From IMG/VR virus record IMGVR_UViG_3300044729_003129, positions 32,001 through 96,000 of that record: a DNA stretch of 64,000 nucleotides; one strand, given 5' to 3'. The notes under the pieces are model-generated. The model did not search any database, was not told the DNA's origin, and was given only the letters and a program-made list of their open reading frames with translations. The DNA is from a virus. A program made the position numbers and the translations under genes. Positions 20,518-62,811 of this stretch are shown piece after piece. Numbering within the stretch: the first letter of the stretch is position 1; each line of letters opens with the position of its first letter.

Positions 20518-21687
20518 TTACACCTTTATGTCACTATAATCTCTATTTTTTCGTTGACTATTAAATGGAGTGCTTACTACTGGAGAACTATCACCATCAT
20601 TGGTAATATTTGCCATAGGATCTGAAATATCATATAGTCTCATCTTGGAAAGATCAATTCCAATAGTAAATCGTTTATTGCTTGTTGGATCATTATAACG
20701 ATTCTTGAGTTGCTTAACCATAATCTGATTCATTTTGTCAAGTTGTTCAGTTCGAATAAATGCAAGCATCAAATCGGCCGTTGCGGGAAGTCCAAACGAT
20801 TCTGAGGTGTCAGTAATTTCTACATCTGAATTATTAAATCCTCCGCGAGTGACCTGAGTGGCACTCCAGATTGGAACATTAAACTCTACAGCAAGACCGC
20901 GAAGCTCCTCAGCAATACTCTTGATAAAACTATAGGTGTTGATGCTACCACTTAATCCTTTAACACGTGAAGATGCACAAATATTAAGATAATCTACATA
21001 TATGATATCGGGTTCAAACTTCTTTTTAAGTTTTAATTCGAGCAGCAGTGCTCTAAAGTGACCAACATGTGCCGCTGCAGTTGGATATTCCTTCACAATA
21101 AGTTTTCCATGAGTGCGTTTAGAGATGTCCTCTACACGAGAATGAAATTCGCGTTGAGACAGGTCTTTGATTTTATCAATTCGTATATCAAGCAAATTAG
21201 CATCAATACGTTCTGCAATACGCTCTTCTGCCATTTCAAGAGTAATATACAAGACATTTCGCCCTTGGGCAAGAGCAGCAGCAGCCATGTGACACATGCC
21301 TAAACTCTTGCCACAACCAGTGTTATGAGAAGAAACTCCATCGGTATAATAACGATGATTTTCATGATCAACAGTAATATCTACAATCGGTATTTGATTT
21401 CCTGTTTTTGTAACTATACCAATTTGATAACCGTCCTCAGTTAAATATTTTTGTTTTTTATGAACTAAATCTTTAGCATATTTCCAACCATCAATGGTTT
21501 CAAATAAATGATTTTCATTAACTCTAATAATTTTGCCGCTATTAAGCAATAAAACATATTCATCCCACATTCCTTTATCAATAAATGCTGACACAGGAAC
21601 ATATCCATCTGGAGAATGCACTTCTATTGAATAACCTTCGTTTAAAAGTGTTTCGATTTCTTTAATTGCAATAACTTTTTCTGTCAT
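20518..21687 (-). CDS. 41: gp41 replicative helicase, C-terminal part preceded by split-intein C-fragment
   Basis: IntC ending GVSSHN then TGCGKS, ITLEMAEE, KEYPT, VDYLN, SATQ, SESFG, QLKNRY. Confidence 0.93.
   Translation of the reverse strand: MTEKVIAIKEIETLLNEGYSIEVHSPDGYVPVSAFIDKGMWDEYVLLLNSGKIIRVNENHLFETIDGWKYAKDLVHKKQKYLTEDGYQIGIVTKTGNQIPIVDITVDHENHRYYTDGVSSHNTGCGKSLGMCHMAAAALAQGRNVLYITLEMAEERIAERIDANLLDIRIDKIKDLSQREFHSRVEDISKRTHGKLIVKEYPTAAAHVGHFRALLLELKLKKKFEPDIIYVDYLNICASSRVKGLSGSINTYSFIKSIAEELRGLAVEFNVPIWSATQVTRGGFNNSDVEITDTSESFGLPATADLMLAFIRTEQLDKMNQIMVKQLKNRYNDPTSNKRFTIGIDLSKMRLYDISDPMANITNDGDSSPVVSTPFNSQRKNRDYSDIKV
21322..21687 (-). mobile_element. Split intein C-fragment (122 aa)
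   Basis: Block B-like VNENHLF, GWKYAKDL, block F VDITV..H.YY, block G SHN/T. Confidence 0.88.
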
Positions 21688-21701
21688 AAAATGTAAGTTT
21701 T

Positions 21702-21709
21702 TATAAATA
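21702..21709 (+). promoter_or_regulatory. Late promoter TATAAATA for the antisense HNH gene
   Basis: Exact consensus upstream of 21739. Confidence 0.65.
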
Positions 21710-21738
21710 TAATATTAGCCGGAACAGTATATAGTCTT

Positions 21739-22554
21739 ATGAAATTTTACTCTCAAATTTATTATAAACTTTGTAATGAAAATGTAAATAATAAAATTCA
21801 TTATTGTAAAGGATCAAATATACATAAACATCATATTATTCCGCGTCATGCTGGTGGAGGAGAAGACGAAAGCAATTTTACTTATCTTAGCATTAGACAA
21901 CATATAATTGCTCATTTTTTGTTGTGGAAAATGCATAGAATGGTTAATGATTTGCGATCAATGCAGATGTTAGGAGCAAAGTTAACGTATGAACAAAGGA
22001 GTATTGTTGGTAAATGGTGCTATGAAAATAAAATAGGAATGTTTTCATTTAGTAAAGAGAAAAAGGCAGAAATTTCACGCCGAAATGGTAAAATGTCAAA
22101 AGAAAAAGAAACTGGTATTCATAATCCGGAAAATTTTTCAAAATTTGCTTCACTTGGAGGAAAGGCTTCGATAATTTCGCCTAATAACCCATGGACATAT
22201 TGGGCTACTCCTGAAGGTAGATCAACACGAGCAAAGTTGGGTGGAAAATCACATCTCGGAAAATTATGGATCCACAAAGATGATGTCATAACACGTTGTC
22301 TGTATAACGAAATTAACGAAAAGATGGATAATGGATGGAAATATGGAATGAAAGATGGCGGAAGGGAATATGTAAACAACGGAGAAAAAACATTTCGAGT
22401 TGAGTCCGATAAAATATTTGACTTATTATTGCGAGGTTGGAAATTGGGAAAAGCGTCTAATTATAAACCAGATCGTAAACGTTCTAAGCATGAACTTTCT
22501 TATGCAGCTTTACTCGAACTTGAGTGTCAGGATGAACACAGCCGGCGAGAATAA
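21739..22554 (+). mobile_element. HNH homing endonuclease (MobE-like) fracturing gene 41
   Basis: HKHHIIPRHAGG..ESN...L..RQH..AH; GGK repeats; lies between the two gp41 halves. Confidence 0.87.
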
Positions 22555-23125
22555 TGTTTAGCGTCTTACGTGGAATGCCTCCGCCAGTAATTGTATTAAA
22601 CATATCCAAGTCAAAGGGAATTTTATCTTCTGTCTTGTGATAAAACTCATAGCGACCATCTACGTTTTCAAGATAATCATGCCCAACGTTTGTATCAAAT
22701 GTTACGCTTAGCGCCTTACTAAGTATACTTGGAATTGCTCCTTCTGCTTTGTCAGGAGACTTGCCATCAATAATAGAAACTGCTTCAATAATAGCAAGAT
22801 GAACTGCTCGATCTTTACACCACTTTTCAGTTTGAACAAGTAACCATTCATGCTCAACTGAAAAATTTTCATTTAACGTTGAGATTGATTGTGCAATTGC
22901 GCCTGCGTCTGTACGACGAGTATGTTCGGACTGTTGAAATTCAATTGCTAACGATGATGAATTTGGGAGTTTATTATACTTTGTTATAAACTGCAATATA
23001 AGACCATATATCGCCTTATGATGTCCTTCAAAATATTCTGGTTTTAGGTGTGGTAGGGTTTTACGACAAAATGCTTCGTTATTGACTAGATTTTTAATTA
23101 TGATGTCTTGAAGATTATTCTCCAT
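22484..23125 (-). CDS. 41: gp41 helicase N-terminal part ending in split-intein N-fragment
   Basis: EKWCKDRA, FDTNVGHDY, NTITGGG..RKTLNIILAG then CVHPDTQV. Confidence 0.92.
   Translation of the reverse strand: MENNLQDIIIKNLVNNEAFCRKTLPHLKPEYFEGHHKAIYGLILQFITKYNKLPNSSSLAIEFQQSEHTRRTDAGAIAQSISTLNENFSVEHEWLLVQTEKWCKDRAVHLAIIEAVSIIDGKSPDKAEGAIPSILSKALSVTFDTNVGHDYLENVDGRYEFYHKTEDKIPFDLDMFNTITGGGIPRKTLNIILAGCVHPDTQVRVKLHKKVHA
22487..22540 (-). mobile_element. Split intein N-fragment (18 aa, CVHPDTQVRVKLHKKVHA)
   Basis: Block A starting with Cys1 in the middle of the Walker A motif. Confidence 0.85.
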
Positions 23126-31739: not shown

Positions 31740-32281
31740 ATATCTTTTTCTTCAATTAGCGCTTCAAGACGATGAACCTCAGCATATGCTTCTTTATATG
31801 ACATACCGTAAAGCTCTTCACAGCTTCTCATTGTACAATTGCCATCTTCCTCTTTAATGAAAAGATCATTGATTGCTTTTGAACTTGGTGTTGGATAAGA
31901 ATTCTCATGTTGTTTTTCAAGTTCGGGACGTTCAGTTTTAATATAATTATAAACTTCACGAAGTTCATTATCAGTGTTTTTAACACTATCAACATACTCT
32001 TGCGAGATATATCCTTTTTCAAGATCTTCAGTCCAATCAGTGTGATCTTGAAGACCTTTTTCGTCTTCTACATAGTGTGTGAGACAAGTAAAAAGCAAAT
32101 GAGGAATAAGAGCAGTCTTGTCACACCATGTGTTAGGAATAGTTTTTGTCAACCACTTTTGGCGTGGATTAAACCATGCTTTGATTTGGTATTTGATATC
32201 ACTCCAATAAAAGCTGTTAAACAGCAGCGAAGGATGTTTAAAAACTCTCCAAGGATTGGGACTGTATGTATCAATAATCAT
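31691..32281 (-). CDS. Conserved phage hypothetical protein
   Basis: PRQKWLTK.IP..WCDK, YVE.E; promoter -10 at 32288-32293. Confidence 0.6.
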   Translation of the reverse strand: MIIDTYSPNPWRVFKHPSLLFNSFYWSDIKYQIKAWFNPRQKWLTKTIPNTWCDKTALIPHLLFTCLTHYVEDEKGLQDHTDWTEDLEKGYISQEYVDSVKNTDNELREVYNYIKTERPELEKQHENSYPTPSSKAINDLFIKEEDGNCTMRSCEELYGMSYKEAYAEVHRLEALIEEKDMWAMKTIVKHYQKMWT

Positions 32282-58430: not shown

Positions 58431-58517
58431 ATTATATACTATATTTTGCAAATGTAAATACTTTTTTACATCTATGTGAATTTTGTTATTTACATAGATT
58501 ATAAAAGAGTGTATAAT
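58431..58517. promoter_or_regulatory. Divergent early-type promoters (minus strand for gene 55; plus strand antisense to uvsW)
   Basis: TTTACA-N16-TATAAT at 58458-58431 (-); TTTACA-N17-TATAAT at 58489-58517 (+). Confidence 0.55.
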
Positions 58518-58540
58518 AATCTATGATTGTTTGATAGTCA

Positions 58541-59002
58541 TCATACATTCTTCCAACGATCTAAGAAAATATTCCATAATTCTTCGTCAGACTGTGATTC
58601 TTCTGGTGGATCAATTTCAGGAATGGGATAATTTAAATCTTCTGATTCATCCAATTCATTCTCATCTGTTTCTTTAGAAGAATTGGACATCAAGTGAAGT
58701 AGTCTCTGATATATAAGTGCTTCTGTATATTTACGTTTAACCTCATCAGATGTATCAGATTCTGTTTCAATACTACGATCATAGACAATACAATTTTCAC
58801 TGTCATTCCCAGCTACAAGTGGTAGCATTACTTGGGTATAGACTCCAGACTTTACAAGTGCTTTTCTTATTTCTAGTGGATAATTTAACTGTATGCCATC
58901 TTCATAGGCATGCACAACTTCTCCTATAAGAACTTTACCACTCGACAATGTAAAGACCCGTATGTCAAGATCTTTTACTTTTGAATATAAGCCATCAATC
59001 AT
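58541..59002 (-). CDS. Conserved Sm-like hypothetical protein between uvsW and gene 55
   Basis: F.L.SG..LIGEV; synteny. Confidence 0.55.
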   Translation of the reverse strand: MIDGLYSKVKDLDIRVFTLSSGKVLIGEVVHAYEDGIQLNYPLEIRKALVKSGVYTQVMLPLVAGNDSENCIVYDRSIETESDTSDEVKRKYTEALIYQRLLHLMSNSSKETDENELDESEDLNYPIPEIDPPEESQSDEELWNIFLDRWKNV

Positions 59003-59910
59003 TGCAGTGGTATTTCATATAGTTTATAGTTAAACCCTTCCTTTGCATACATTTTGGTACGCTCTATTGCGTGTTGCAGTGTGTAATTCTTTTTCTTTTT
59101 CCATGAGAAGTTGTCTGATATGTCATAGACTGTTGTTGGTCGACCATCATCAGATTTTCGTAGTCCTCGACCAATGCTTTGCAATACACGTATTTGACTC
59201 TTTGTTGGCGCAGCAAATATAATCTGGTGCAGATTTTTGATATTGATTCCTGTACTAAACGTACCAACACTCGCCACAATAATTGCATTGTTTTGTGTTT
59301 CAGTTAATTCACGTATGTGTTCTCTGTTTGTTGCGTCTACTTCTCCAGACACATAGAATATATGTCTATCAGAATCACCATTAATACTACTTATAAGTTC
59401 AAAAAGAGGTTTGCCATGTTTCTGAACGAGATTAAAGAGTATGAGTGTATTGCCCTTTTGGTCAAGAGCAAGGTTTGCTATAAAAGAGTTTCGACCAACA
59501 TGAGTCACAATTGCATCTATCTCAGTTTGATAGTCGGCTTTAGAGATTACCTTTTTAAGTTCATCACTGTGGTTGCATACAATACATTTAATTTTTAATG
59601 CAGCAAGAGTATCGTTATCAATAAGCTCTTTTGTTGTAATTACTCGATGAGTTGGACCAAAATTGCCAACAAGTACTCGTTCATTGCAAAGACTGCCATC
59701 AAGGGTGCCAGTAGTGCCTATGCGATAACATGCATTAACACATGCAGACATAATCGTATTTAAACTTTTTGCTTTGAAGAGATGTGCTTCATCTCCTATG
59801 ACCATGCCATAGCTTTTAAACCAGGATTTTTGTAATGTAATTGCGCTCTGCCATGTAGTAATAATAACAGGCGATGGAGTTTCAATGATATCAATTTTAG
59901 ATATTTTCAT
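58999..59910 (-). CDS. uvsW: UvsW helicase, C-terminal part
   Basis: ITTWQS, GDEAH, GTTGT, FSTGINI, QSIGRGLR; preceded by MKISKIDIIET. Confidence 0.93.
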   Translation of the reverse strand: MKISKIDIIETPSPVIITTWQSAITLQKSWFKSYGMVIGDEAHLFKAKSLNTIMSACVNACYRIGTTGTLDGSLCNERVLVGNFGPTHRVITTKELIDNDTLAALKIKCIVCNHSDELKKVISKADYQTEIDAIVTHVGRNSFIANLALDQKGNTLILFNLVQKHGKPLFELISSINGDSDRHIFYVSGEVDATNREHIRELTETQNNAIIVASVGTFSTGINIKNLHQIIFAAPTKSQIRVLQSIGRGLRKSDDGRPTTVYDISDNFSWKKKKNYTLQHAIERTKMYAKEGFNYKLYEIPLQ

Positions 59911-60727
59911 ATTTTTTTCTGCCTAACACCCATTCATTATTATCTATAATAGGAAACATCAACTTTGAAATTCGTAATTCATCATTATGATACCATTTCA
60001 TTCCTGTAGTAGTAGAATGTTTGGCTTTACGTTCTTCAGCGCTTAATAAGGAATTATTTTTTATTTTAGTTTTCGACATTTTGCGAACACGATCTGAATT
60101 TTCCTTTGTTTGACCAGTTCGTTCTAAACTAAACTTTTTTCTAACTTCATCAGACCATTCATGTCCAAATTTCTGTTTCCGCTCTTCTTTTGTCATCTTA
60201 GCAATAGTTTCATTGAATTTATTTCGCGAATCTCGTAGCCATTGTGAATTCTCAGCAGTATATTGTGATTTTTTTATATTAGCGATTCTAATATAATCAT
60301 GAGTTTCTTTAGTTCTCCCACTTAAAGCCTTACTAATTTTCTGTTTGGTATTATCATCAAATAATGGATTATTTTTCTGCATATGATCTATCCAAATCAA
60401 TTTATAATCAAGATATTGTCTTGAAGATTTAGATTTATTTCTGCGATTTAGAAAGAACATCGCTCTAACCATTTTTAACCTATTTTCTCCAAAAAACATC
60501 TTTGTTAAAAGTAAATGACAAATAAAATGTTCCCGAATCGTAAGAACTACTTTGTTATCATTTTTATTTTTCCAATCACGATTAAACGAAACTGGAAATA
60601 TATGGTGGTTTTCAATAGGATTATCTAATATATTCCTAGATATAGCGCGATTGATTAAGGCATTATACCATTTTGTATATTTATTGCTTATCGCAAGATT
60701 ATTAAGTTCATTTAAAAAGTAATTCAT
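59897..60727 (-). mobile_element. HNH homing endonuclease fracturing uvsW
   Basis: KY.KWY, ENHHIFP, LT.REHFICH.LL; NUMOD3-like GRTKE/GQTKE repeats; AT-rich. Confidence 0.88.
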
Positions 60728-60758
60728 ACCTACAAAGGTTGTTATAGGTATATTTATA
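60727..60758 (-). promoter_or_regulatory. Late promoter plus RBS-sequestering hairpin
   Basis: TATAAATA-TACCTATAA-CAACCT-TTGTAGGTA-TG. Confidence 0.7.
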
Positions 60759-61506
60759 CTATGTCATCTTTTAAAGTTAAATCACCAGCTTTAATTTTAC
60801 CTCTATTACTAGTATTTACTATATCATTTGGAAAATACGACTGTATTGATCCATCTTCCATAGTCAATTTAATTTTATTTTTTTGGGGATTTTTATCATA
60901 TCCGCTCATTATCATAGATACACTATCTTCAACATTAAATGTATCATCAGATTTAGAATACTCTTCAAAATCTTTTGTCATTTGGTGAACGAGTGATGTT
61001 GTAGGCACTACAATCAATATCTTTTGATCATAATGTTCTAAAAACCAACGAACACATAAGTAGATAATTAAACTTTTTCCAGAACCCGTAGGAGATATTA
61101 CGAGACTGCGTCCTTCAGTGCATGCATGCACGTATGCTTCAAGTTGATAGTCTCGTGGTGTTATCTGCGTTCCACCACTCGTTATATGTAAACTATTTGC
61201 ATAATCTAACAGCGATTGTGATGTTGGTACATCTCGTTCAGTTATGCTAGGATGCAATTCATAACTATAGCCATGAGAGTCAGCAAACTTTAACACTTCA
61301 AACAACAGACCATATGGTAGTGTTGATGTTTTAGTATTATATAATCTAATGCGTCCATCCCATAATTTATTTCTATACGATGGAACAAACTTATATCCTT
61401 CAGCAAAAAAAGTAAAATGTTCTGAAAGCTCCATAAGAATTCCAGAATCATTAGAGACTATTCTCAATGAAGTTTCGTCAATCTTATGTATCTTTAGATG
61501 AGACAT
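60754..61506 (-). CDS. uvsW: UvsW helicase, N-terminal part ending in a Hint-like fragment
   Basis: WDGRIRL, PRDYQ, SPTGSGKS, VPTTSLV.QM; start taken at MSHLK. Confidence 0.92.
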   Translation of the reverse strand: MSHLKIHKIDETSLRIVSNDSGILMELSEHFTFFAEGYKFVPSYRNKLWDGRIRLYNTKTSTLPYGLLFEVLKFADSHGYSYELHPSITERDVPTSQSLLDYANSLHITSGGTQITPRDYQLEAYVHACTEGRSLVISPTGSGKSLIIYLCVRWFLEHYDQKILIVVPTTSLVHQMTKDFEEYSKSDDTFNVEDSVSMIMSGYDKNPQKNKIKLTMEDGSIQSYFPNDIVNTSNRGKIKAGDLTLKDDIV

Positions 61507-62317
61507 TATCTTTATATTTGCAGTTATCAAAATGCCATCGTTTCATAGTATTTATTCCTCCATTTTTATTACAATGTGGACATATGATAATATTAGATTT
61601 TTTTCCAGTTAATGCTTTACTTATTTTTTCTCTAGTTTCTGGAGAATTAGTTAATCCTATTCTAGTTCCAATTTTACCAATATTAGCTAATCTAAGTTTT
61701 TCTTTAGTTTCTTCAGAGTGAACTTTTAATTTGAGTTTTAATGACCTTTCATTCCATATATGAGCTTTAATACTTTCAATATCTGAAAAATTACTAATAT
61801 CATTATTTCTTATAAATGTTATAACTGAAAAACTAATATTTAATTGTTTCATTGCGGATGTTATTGAATCATACGTTTCTCCAAGTATAGTTATTTGTTT
61901 TGATTTTTTAGATTTTCTACCAGACATTTTTATAGAATGCGCAAAGGCAGATGCTTTTTGTTTAGGTGATCGCAAATCTCCCTTTAAAGTTACTAGTGTA
62001 TTAGACATAATTTCACTAGTAATAATTGGGGGTGCAGGTCTATCTGTTTTATTTAAAAAATCTAAACGATTAACTGCATTTAATCTTTTTAATACTTTAG
62101 ATTCCCATTTACATGCTGCATCTTTATTTTTAAATGTTTTACGTATTTGAATAATATCAGGATTGCCATAGATATCAATATATGATTTTACGACTGATGA
62201 TGAAGTAAAATATGTGACAAATAAATCAGATGGATGACAATTGAAGGAATATCTAACTCCATAATAATATTTGTTTAAATTTTTCCAACCAATTAAATAC
62301 GTATATGGTATATTCAT
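61484..62317 (-). mobile_element. GIY-YIG-like homing endonuclease with NUMOD3 repeats
   Basis: PYTYLI.W...YYYGVRY, YFTSS, HSEETKEK/SPETREKIS, CPHC..RWHFDNC; late promoter 62323-62330. Confidence 0.8.
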
Positions 62318-62361
62318 ATTAGTATTTATAATAATACATTTTTAATGTACTGGTATCGCCA

Positions 62362-62811
62362 TTAAGCTCCTGATACAAATCGTCTATGATCTATAATATT
62401 TTTAATTGTGGTATGTCTCCACTTTATATTGTCCATAATATCTTTAAGAGCTTCAACAATTGTAGATTGATATTCTATTTGTCCTTGAAGTTTCATAATA
62501 TCAGAGTCAGTAGAGTAAAACAATTCCATGTCACTTTTAAGCGGTTTCGTCATACCAGAAAATGGATCATACTGCCATCCTTTGGCATCCATTTCGTTTT
62601 TAGTCATCTTACCATTATAGTAGAGCCATTTGTCTTTGCGCAAATGAGCCATAGAGAGTTCTTTCTTTTTGAGATTTAACTTTGCGATGCTATAGAGTTC
62701 TAGATATTTTGAATGTAGACTAGCACTTTTGACGCTCGTTTCATCTAAATTAATCTCATCAATAACGCTGTCAGTTTCCCATAATTTAAGTATATCTTCA
62801 AGTTGCATCAT
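62362..62811 (-). CDS. uvsY: Recombination mediator UvsY
   Basis: W..DS.ID, LHSKY, KWLYY.GK, IKN.I..R.F..G. Confidence 0.92.
   Translation of the reverse strand: MMQLEDILKLWETDSVIDEINLDETSVKSASLHSKYLELYSIAKLNLKKKELSMAHLRKDKWLYYNGKMTKNEMDAKGWQYDPFSGMTKPLKSDMELFYSTDSDIMKLQGQIEYQSTIVEALKDIMDNIKWRHTTIKNIIDHRRFVSGA

Follow-up and report, generated by a model that had tools for sequence, protein, structure and literature searches.

A homing-endonuclease cassette dividing a phage uvsW gene carries probable split-intein remnants that may dock the two helicase halves

The DNA analysed here (the window, a stretch of 64,000 nucleotides (nt) corresponding to positions 32,001 to 96,000 of the IMG/VR virus record IMGVR_UViG_3300044729_003129) contains a gene for the helicase UvsW that is divided by a mobile cassette carrying a homing endonuclease gene. 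The cassette adds a tail of 40 residues to the N-terminal half of UvsW (N-half) and a head of 11 residues to the C-terminal half (C-half), and it is very probable that these two peptides are derived from an intein, are unable to splice, are borne by the cassette and are maintained by selection. We consider it moderately probable that the tail and the head dock the two halves of the helicase. The source record is a 173.8-kb viral contig from freshwater, with 97% completeness.

Organization of the divided uvsW gene

On the minus strand of the window, the UvsW N-half, an HNH endonuclease gene and the UvsW C-half form three consecutive open reading frames (ORFs). This agreed with the preliminary description of the sequence, in which uvsW was cut between motif Ia and ITTWQS with an HNH gene in the gap, and the ORFs and the Pfam and PHROG searches all supported it. 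The N-half in the ORF list (60754-61506, minus strand, 250 residues) consists of the UvsW N-terminal domain, motifs I and Ia and the tail, and matched UvsW_N (E 1e-17), ResIII (E 2e-13) and also DEAD in Pfam. It was 73% identical to residues 2-219 of the intact allele P0119, and ended in SGYDKNPQKN followed by KIKLTMEDGSIQSYFPNDIVNTSNRGKIKAGDLTLKDDIV and the stop codon. The C-half (58999-59910, minus strand, 303 residues), identified from the ORF list and by Pfam Helicase_C, contains motifs Ib, II and III and RecA-like domain 2. It started with MKISKIDIIET followed by PSPVIITTWQS, and was 95-96% identical to residues 208-499 of P0119. The break falls between motif Ia (VPTTSLV) and TTWQS, a position corresponding on T4 UvsW (PDB 2OCA) to the loop of approximately residues 198-206, which in RecA-like domain 1 joins the strand KKIGGG to the motif Ib strand VVVGTW.

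The tail (KIKLT...DDIV) is located at 60757-60876 and the head at 59878-59910, both on the minus strand, and the coordinates and sequences in the preliminary description were correct. The distance of 843 nt between the halves is occupied nearly entirely by the ORF of a free-standing Mob-type HNH endonuclease (59897-60727, minus strand, 276 residues). This protein matched the PHROG families phrog_655 (homing endonuclease, E 2.6e-30) and phrog_12434 (HNH), as well as MobD/MobE-like genes in a tblastn search, and nothing in Pfam. The non-coding gap from the N-half stop codon to the endonuclease start was 26 nt. There was none on the 3' side, where the ATG of the head overlapped the 3' end of the endonuclease ORF, with an overlap of 14 nt between this ORF and the C-half start.

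Tail and head as parts of an inserted cassette

The tail and head were absent from the intact 500-residue UvsW alleles of near-identical phages, up to 96% identical in the C-half (P0119, C-half protein search), and the intact protein runs straight from ...HKIYSGKEKHDISSR to VIVTTWQS. In the blastn comparison with the intact locus L004, positions 61481-60937 and 59868-58400 of the window were aligned, with 1068 nt between them in the window against 63 nt in L004. The inserted DNA (59869-60936, minus strand) includes a diverged, co-converted upstream flank, the tail, the endonuclease gene and the head, and its GC content was 0.25-0.31 compared with 0.36-0.38 in the uvsW flanks. The tail and head thus belong to an inserted mobile cassette of approximately 1.07 kb of AT-rich DNA. 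In the lake metagenome run X5, one contig joined 59869 to 60956 with 81 nt between them at a depth of 9.7, representing the intact junction, and cassette-bearing contigs were present at a depth of approximately 2.8, indicating that both alleles coexisted in one sample. A search for loci with a single tail found two near-identical contigs only.

The comparison of nine split loci detected an ORF between the halves in all nine. The endonuclease gene of L002 was 100% identical to that in the window. The flanks of L006 were 96% identical to those of the window, and the same site held 1013 nt where the intact allele has 16 nt. The L006 endonuclease was GIY-YIG-like and unrelated to the HNH protein of the window; its tail, NMNEYKVELENGSVLTFTQFQKAQLKDGSWKDAFDLTENDEINDKWLSKLK followed by the stop codon, was longer, homologous but diverged, ending in ...DEINDKWLSKLK, and the head of its C-half was MKVKKITKVEKNP. 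The two peptides therefore move together with the endonuclease gene, each type of cassette having its own version of them, and the view in the preliminary description that the Hint fragments had been kept by the host gene was corrected: they are part of the cassette.

The backbone of the protein P0003 belongs to another, P0131-like intact lineage, yet its last approximately 75 residues were identical to those of the window, including about 35 native helicase residues before the tail. This is the pattern that co-conversion during homing would produce. These 35 or so residues (LVHQMTKDFEEYSKSDDTFNVEDSVSMIMSGYDKNPQKN; window 60877-60990, minus strand) were compared with P0003, P0131 and P0119. 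They were identical among cassette carriers of different backbones and diverged from intact alleles, which looks like a co-conversion tract. In a subfamily with long tails (L006, L010, L011 and many N-halves), a conserved D-D/E-x-W-L-S/Q extension was found after the intein-like part. MAFFT repeatedly placed this extension onto the native helix ...K-S-W-F... after TTWQS, which may be due to mimicry, duplication or chance.

Similarity of the tail and head to split inteins

The tails of N-halves of approximately 250 residues, collected in the N-half protein search, aligned on the pattern K-I-T-L-E-D-G-S ... N-R-G ... A-K-D-L-T ... D-D/E-I, and a profile was built from 22 of them. In the PDB, this tail profile matched the NrdJ-1 intein at rank 1 (E 0.0039) at residues 76-105, the very end of the N-terminal intein fragment (IntN), and two entries of the gp41-1 intein at ranks 2 and 3 (E 0.0045 and 0.0074), from residue 44. 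The search against 1.84 billion representative proteins gave 1094 matches at E<=1e-3. In addition to UvsW N-halves, they comprised many true inteins, with E values of 1e-9 to 1e-12, from ribonucleotide reductases, UvrD-like helicases, a prohead protease and other proteins. The true-intein matches covered approximately positions 38-93 of Pfam Intein_splicing (PF14890). As an example, P0258 has ...LTPDHKVYTSNRGYVSAGELTADDDIV where the tail in the window has ...FPNDIVNTSNRGKIKAGDLTLKDDIV. The profile searches therefore agreed with the earlier proposal that the tail matches the end of an IntN, and showed that it is homologous to the second half of the IntN of a split intein, from block B to the IntN end, with the homology limited to the middle of the Hint/intein splicing domain. 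When the genome itself was compared with Pfam Intein_splicing, there was no match; the same search also missed the genuine split intein in gp41 described below.

The tail-bearing UvsW N-halves formed at least 37 clusters at 50% identity. The same tail and head recurred in dozens of UvsW halves at 34-94% identity, indicating that the arrangement is more than chance. The head had the form MKIxKIxxIE in 13 C-halves, a conserved motif too short for statistics. From the comparison of C-halves it resembles the first beta-strand of the C-terminal intein fragment (IntC), and the likeness to an IntC start mentioned in the preliminary description was upheld, this form being the one at IntC starts. The head may also resemble the start of the gp41-1 IntC.

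Three further matches of the tail profile combined such a tail with other intein sequence. In the DnaE fragment P0374, the end of a true intein (...HNS) is separated by 35 residues of extein from a tail that lacks TxxH. In P0323, a second tail lacking TxxH comes after a full Hint domain, and the UvsW N-half P0309 has a complete LAGLIDADG intein near motif I in addition to the dead tail at its C-terminal end.

Absence of splicing chemistry and of an intron

In the block B columns, true inteins had T in 73/90 and H in 77/90 sequences. The UvsW tails had variable residues at the position of T and E, Q or D at that of H, and the window has F..N. Neither block A nor a conserved Cys/Ser/Thr nucleophile was found in the 22 tails. 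The N-half aligned to intact UvsW right up to the tail, and no extra residues preceded the tail or followed the head. Blocks F and G, the terminal (H)N and the +1 nucleophile were also absent, as the heads consisted of 11-14 residues and then the native ...VIITTWQS. The tail and head amount to 51 residues, compared with approximately 125 residues or more for a complete Hint fold. Protein splicing cannot occur, since none of the nucleophile block, TxxH, blocks F and G, the terminal Asn and the +1 nucleophile has been retained. The column tabulation and the alignments of tails and heads thus confirmed what had been noted for the Cys/Ser1 block, TxxH and terminal HN.

A group I intron had been considered to have no room at this locus, and this was also the result here: the region 58500-62500 gave no Rfam match at E<=10, a P3-P9 core flanking the ORF was not found, and the non-coding DNA is the short gap mentioned above. 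The sole joint skipping the cassette came from a DNA run and corresponded to the intact allele.

Selection on the tail and persistence of the split alleles

The proportions of synonymous (pS) and nonsynonymous (pN) differences were compared between loci. For the tail, pS and pN were 0.77 and 0.13 between the window and L007, with a pN of 0.28 for the helicase core, and 0.44 and 0.17 between L006 and L010, although single values are noisy as the tail has only 40 codons. The tail pN was well below pS in all pairs except L006 and L012, a pair across cassette types (pS 0.47, pN 0.55). These values showed that the tail is under purifying selection.

The endonuclease gene was broken into two ORFs in L007, and its HNH-encoding part was gone in L008 and L009. 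The tail and head were intact where the endonuclease gene was broken (L007) or truncated (L008 and L009). Both UvsW halves were intact in nine loci, and the helicase cores of split alleles were also constrained, which argues against pseudogenes. The decay of the halves, named in the preliminary description as a point that would speak against its proposal, was not observed: besides the intact halves in nine loci, pN was far below pS, and no second uvsW was found in the 97%-complete genome.

Predicted structure

In the protein P0280, a singleton on one 2.3-kb contig, the tail and head are fused in frame (...AKDLCEGDEIEGLGISNVEKIYTKIVCSTWQS). The search for P0280-like proteins returned P0280 alone, without further fused forms. 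The AlphaFold2 model of P0280:196-300 was obtained with an alignment (A5) in which the last 2-15 tail residues were misplaced. The insert was all beta, with the head forming a long strand, and the predicted local distance difference test score (pLDDT) across it was 89-94. The top Foldseek matches of the model were nearly all inteins, bacterial intein-like domains or hedgehog Hint domains. VIA-align gave a Z of 8.4 with a root-mean-square deviation (rmsd) of 1.9 Å over 59 residues for 7oec, and a Z of 8.3 with an rmsd of 1.3 Å over 53 residues for 6bs8. For gp41-1, model residues 18-79 were superposed on intein residues 40-104 with a Z of 7.4, a value in the range below 8 that can reflect a common arrangement. 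Among the matches listed, inteins or Hint domains accounted for 50/50 rows. The range of gp41-1 aligned by structure was the range indicated by the sequence profile, and for the naturally fused peptides the prediction is a fold corresponding to the central part of a Hint domain.

The complex of the tail (49 residues, alignment A4) and residues 1-30 of the C-half (A7) was predicted with our own alignments and a rough calibration. The interaction prediction score from aligned errors (ipSAE) was 0.36, compared with 0.01 for the best of three controls. Three runs shared at least 94% of the contacts, and the pLDDT of the partner was 56. The mark applied to these complex predictions was reached by 58/80 solved complexes and 2/110 mismatched pairs, and at ipSAE <=0.60 by 7/80 solved complexes and both of the mismatched pairs that passed. 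This prediction was regarded as a weak result and counted neither for nor against binding.

Putative control signals of the endonuclease genes

The sequence TATAAATA, the T4-type late-promoter consensus, was located over the N-half stop codon (60751-60758, minus strand), 24 nt upstream of the endonuclease start. The window contained 16 copies where 6 were expected, and each of its three endonuclease genes was preceded by one. The N-half stop codon was inside TATAAATA at the same offset in six loci of the short-tail HNH type, namely the window, L002, L007, L008, L009 and L012. The sequence over the stop codon is presumed from these positions to be the late promoter of the endonuclease gene. In addition, ViennaRNA predicted an RNA hairpin (60725-60752, minus strand) pairing the Shine-Dalgarno-like GUAGGU and the AU of the AUG of the endonuclease gene, with a folding free energy of -12.5 kcal/mol for 60715-60762 (minus strand). 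Hairpins of different sequence were present at the same place in L007 and L008. By analogy with mobE, whose control it resembles (PMC3045599), the hairpin may regulate the endonuclease.

A second free-standing endonuclease gene was found between uvsY and uvsW (61484-62317, minus strand). It encodes a GIY-YIG-like protein with a NUMOD3 motif and an I-TevI-type DNA-binding domain, and TATAAATA is located directly upstream at 62323-62330. The gene was absent from the otherwise syntenic L004 and L006, and its product was related to the endonuclease inside uvsW of L006 and L010. T4 segE is a known endonuclease gene targeting uvsW from an adjacent position (PMC2988022). The position of the 61484-62317 gene upstream of uvsW recalls that of segE.

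Relation to known divided genes

The nrdA-a/mobE/nrdA-b locus of phage Aeh1 was reportedly described as 'genes in pieces' by Friedrich et al. in 2007. According to Crona et al. 2011 (PMC3045599), the split NrdA of Aeh1 requires its mobE-derived tails for activity; the authors proposed as a speculation that a degenerate split intein gave rise to these tails, but found no similarity. As in Aeh1 (PMC3045599), a free-standing Mob-type HNH gene is present inside a conserved phage DNA-metabolism gene, the halves would be translated separately and carry AT-rich C- and N-terminal tails that came with the insertion, the downstream half starts within the endonuclease ORF, an RNA structure (predicted here) covers the start of that ORF, and splicing does not take place. 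In contrast to the dimeric ribonucleotide reductase of Aeh1, the gene divided here encodes a monomeric superfamily 2 helicase. The tails examined here showed intein homology in sequence and predicted fold, whereas the Aeh1 authors had no database match, and the Aeh1 tails (read from L017 and L018) differed in sequence from the uvsW tail family in a comparison by eye. The module here is a large family with at least two endonuclease families, and its tail function is proposed from sequence and models, that in Aeh1 being experimental. In the Aeh1 locus (NC_005260, 41.5-45.5 kb; L017/L018), the NrdA-a tail is KKEKMLFKVKKSEVDKFKLMVATDQYKSLRY, and the NrdA-b head MIEHERIYEVYEDEEYTTVEIEVDVSE (MIEHERIYEVYEDEEYTTVEIEVD...) looks by eye like the first IntC hairpin without the HN end, on which no claim is made.

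In the fractured genes reported by Dassa et al. 2009 (PMC2677866), including those with gp41-1 and NrdJ-1, split inteins flank a free-standing homing endonuclease gene. The order of N-extein with IntN, endonuclease gene, and IntC with C-extein, the phage origin, the occurrence in aquatic metagenomes and the GIY-YIG or HNH type of the endonuclease are common to those loci (PMC2677866) and the present one, and the fractured-gene inteins gp41-1 and NrdJ-1 were the best solved-structure matches of the tail profile. The published loci trans-splice and have retained all six splicing motifs with the catalytic residues, whereas approximately 40 + 11 residues, none catalytic, are left here; uvsW is not among the published loci (PMC2677866). 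The locus has the fractured-gene arrangement, yet lacks the catalytic features defining a fractured gene, and it ties together two known kinds of system, endonuclease-split genes with assembly tails and fractured genes. In its mode of action it would be closest to nrdA-a/mobE/nrdA-b of Aeh1.

In T4, the mobA/gene 39/gene 60 locus (PMC3045599) is similar in that a Mob-type cassette interrupts the gene of an essential enzyme and contributes sequences that compensate for the damage, the products being assembled non-covalently. That topoisomerase system has a 50-nt ribosomal bypass and tail-like extensions of unknown origin, in contrast to an intein-derived peptide pair and no bypass element here.

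Complete split inteins were found in uvsW of other phages (P0040, P0062, P0079 and P0246), and their IntN ends were closely similar to the tail (...ITGNHKVLTKNRGWVRVDNLTSDDDL versus ...FPNDIVNTSNRGKIKAGDLTLKDDIV in the window). Block A and TxxH are present in these inteins, which Pfam Intein_splicing detects, but the inteins sit elsewhere in uvsW (motif II, between DE and C, and after TGTLDG). Of the alleles named for a survey in the preliminary description, intact and tail-bearing ones were found at the present site and complete inteins at other sites in uvsW. The arrangement had also been regarded as undescribed. Neither a fractured uvsW nor half-intein tails incapable of splicing turned up in the literature searches, in line with that view, but the idea itself was anticipated by Crona et al. 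2011 (PMC3045599).

Proposed mechanism and alternative explanations

The cassette would have arisen from an endonuclease cassette with a fractured-gene split intein. This intein would have lost the splicing chemistry but retained the central part of its fold, still divided where IntN and IntC naturally meet. The tail and head are very probably what is left of such a phage split intein, the tail being the second half of IntN and the head the first IntC strand. In order, approximately 40 codons of the cassette are fused in frame to the upstream uvsW half as the tail, with the stop codon embedded in the late-promoter-like TATAAATA and followed by the predicted hairpin over the endonuclease ribosome-binding site. 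The Mob-type HNH endonuclease gene comes next, and approximately 11 codons of the head, which overlap the end of this gene, provide the downstream half with a start codon and N-terminus of its own. UvsW would be made as two polypeptides, with the break on the surface of RecA-like domain 1, in the loop that connects the motif Ib strand to the strand preceding it. The two cassette-derived peptides would then most probably refold together into a small Hint-like beta module, which would dock the halves non-covalently and so complete RecA-like domain 1. Such docking would make the endonuclease insertion nearly neutral for the phage.

The intein-derived, non-splicing, cassette-borne and selected nature of the tail and head can be held with high confidence. 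The docking by tail and head and the activity of the two-piece helicase are presumed, and the mechanism as a whole was judged moderately likely, since the binding computation was weak and the Aeh1 tails are essential without being the primary dimerisation device.

Several points weigh against the docking mechanism or against its structural basis. Pfam was blind to the tail, giving no family at E<=10 for tail or head. The similarity to Hint domains anticipated in the preliminary description was supported by the sequence profile and by the matches of the P0280 model, but the Foldseek E values of these matches were only 0.01-1, with none <=0.001, and the VIA-align score for gp41-1 carries the caution given above. 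The modelled protein was a singleton relative, not the window's own pair, and the AlphaFold model may echo an intein fold remembered from sequence similarity. The direct computation of tail-head binding gave the weak result described. The Aeh1 tails are needed for a later assembly step rather than for heterodimer formation, so that by analogy clasping may be the wrong role, and the halves of the split RecA-like domain might associate unaided through their own large interface. The evidence from RNA libraries was one 225-nt contig within the C-half, uninformative on splicing or expression level. Charge complementarity of the tail and head was dropped as a candidate, as both were roughly neutral by eye.

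The strongest alternative, although unlikely in our estimation, is that an intein left the tail and head as a scar, that their role is another or a purely structural one, and that the halves associate through the RecA-domain interface itself. The peptides could then be kept as caps or solubilisers of the broken ends, as stop and start signals together with the endonuclease promoter, or for a later step. The Aeh1 NrdA tails are dispensable for heterodimer formation (PMC3045599), which agrees with such a role, as does the only weakly supportive complex prediction. Moreover, the last tail codons overlap the conserved TATAAATA and the head supplies a start codon, so part of the conservation could be at the level of DNA or translation signals. 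However, the amino-acid conservation spans all 40 tail residues while synonymous sites are saturated, and the conserved tail positions are structural core positions common to true inteins. The head motifs also change with the tails between cassette types, and the fused form is predicted as one compact fold using both peptides.

It is very unlikely that the fractured uvsW is non-functional, with a phage tolerating the loss of UvsW and the halves and tails being young remnants that have not yet decayed. In T4, uvsW is not strictly essential, and the presence of intact and fractured alleles in one sample is expected of a recently invading selfish element; both were counted in favour of this explanation. 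Against it, split alleles with intact halves were found in dozens of clusters at 34-94% identity, the helicase cores of these alleles had pN far below pS, the halves stayed open where the endonuclease gene itself had decayed, and the genome lacks a second uvsW.

The covalent joining of the halves after all, by an unrecognised minimal trans-splicing intein, RNA splicing or translational bypass, is the least probable explanation and hardly credible: it is favoured by the resemblance of the locus to a classical fractured gene, by an apparently working split intein in gp41 of this genome and by the reading frame common to the two halves, but only 51 residues are left, no family-wide nucleophile exists at either junction, TxxH, blocks F and G and the terminal Asn are absent, no Rfam intron was found at E<=10 in the 843 nt that are almost all endonuclease ORF, and the only joint skipping the cassette was the intact allele in a DNA run.

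If the docking of the UvsW halves by tail and head is true, it would represent a third route into essential genes, in which an endonuclease brings its own protein 'glue' and neither RNA nor protein splicing is required. It would be the first support at the sequence level for the speculation on Aeh1 NrdA that the tails are degenerate split inteins. One phage group would show a series from the intact gene through a catalytic split intein (gp41 in this genome and other uvsW sites) to a dead half-intein clasp. It also bears on recognition versus chemistry in split inteins, as the retained part extends from block B to the IntN end and includes the first IntC strand. Small tags for the non-covalent assembly of split proteins could also be obtained from the natural pair of 40 + 11 residues, of which there are many diverged and perhaps orthogonal variants. 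Whether the cassettes form a distinct and widespread class of mobile elements, in which homing endonucleases from two or more families are accompanied by a docking pair made of a splicing-dead half-intein and essential phage genes are turned into non-covalent two-piece enzymes, is evenly balanced in our judgement.

Gene context and other fractured genes

The gene neighbourhood was T4-like, with a gp19-like gene, uvsY, uvsW, an ORF of 153 residues, gp55, gp47 and gp46. A megablast search of phage records gave no match, and the relatives are known from metagenomes only.

The gp41/DnaB-like replicative helicase of the same phage is encoded by a genuine fractured gene (20518-23125, minus strand), with an atypically split intein inside Walker A. 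The N-part (22484-23125) ends with ...ILAG followed by an IntN of only approximately 18 residues, CVHPDTQVRVKLHKKVHA, and the stop codon. The C-part (20518-21687) starts with an IntC of 122 residues, which ends in ...VSSHN before TGCGKS and matched the VidaL intein (6vgv) at E 3.5e-10. The HNH endonuclease gene between the parts is on the opposite strand (21739-22554, plus strand) and is preceded by TATAAATA.

A second fracture of uvsW, in RecA-like domain 2, was detected in L012 (5023-7051), where an ORF of 292 residues lies between C-half residues 1-204 and 218-303. P0280 (L013:491-2041) also ends in another catalytically empty tail, ...IKLSDGSVKLARDITKNDDVSDEWIAKNRE. The second fracture site in L012 and P0280 indicates that the module is not tied to one insertion site.

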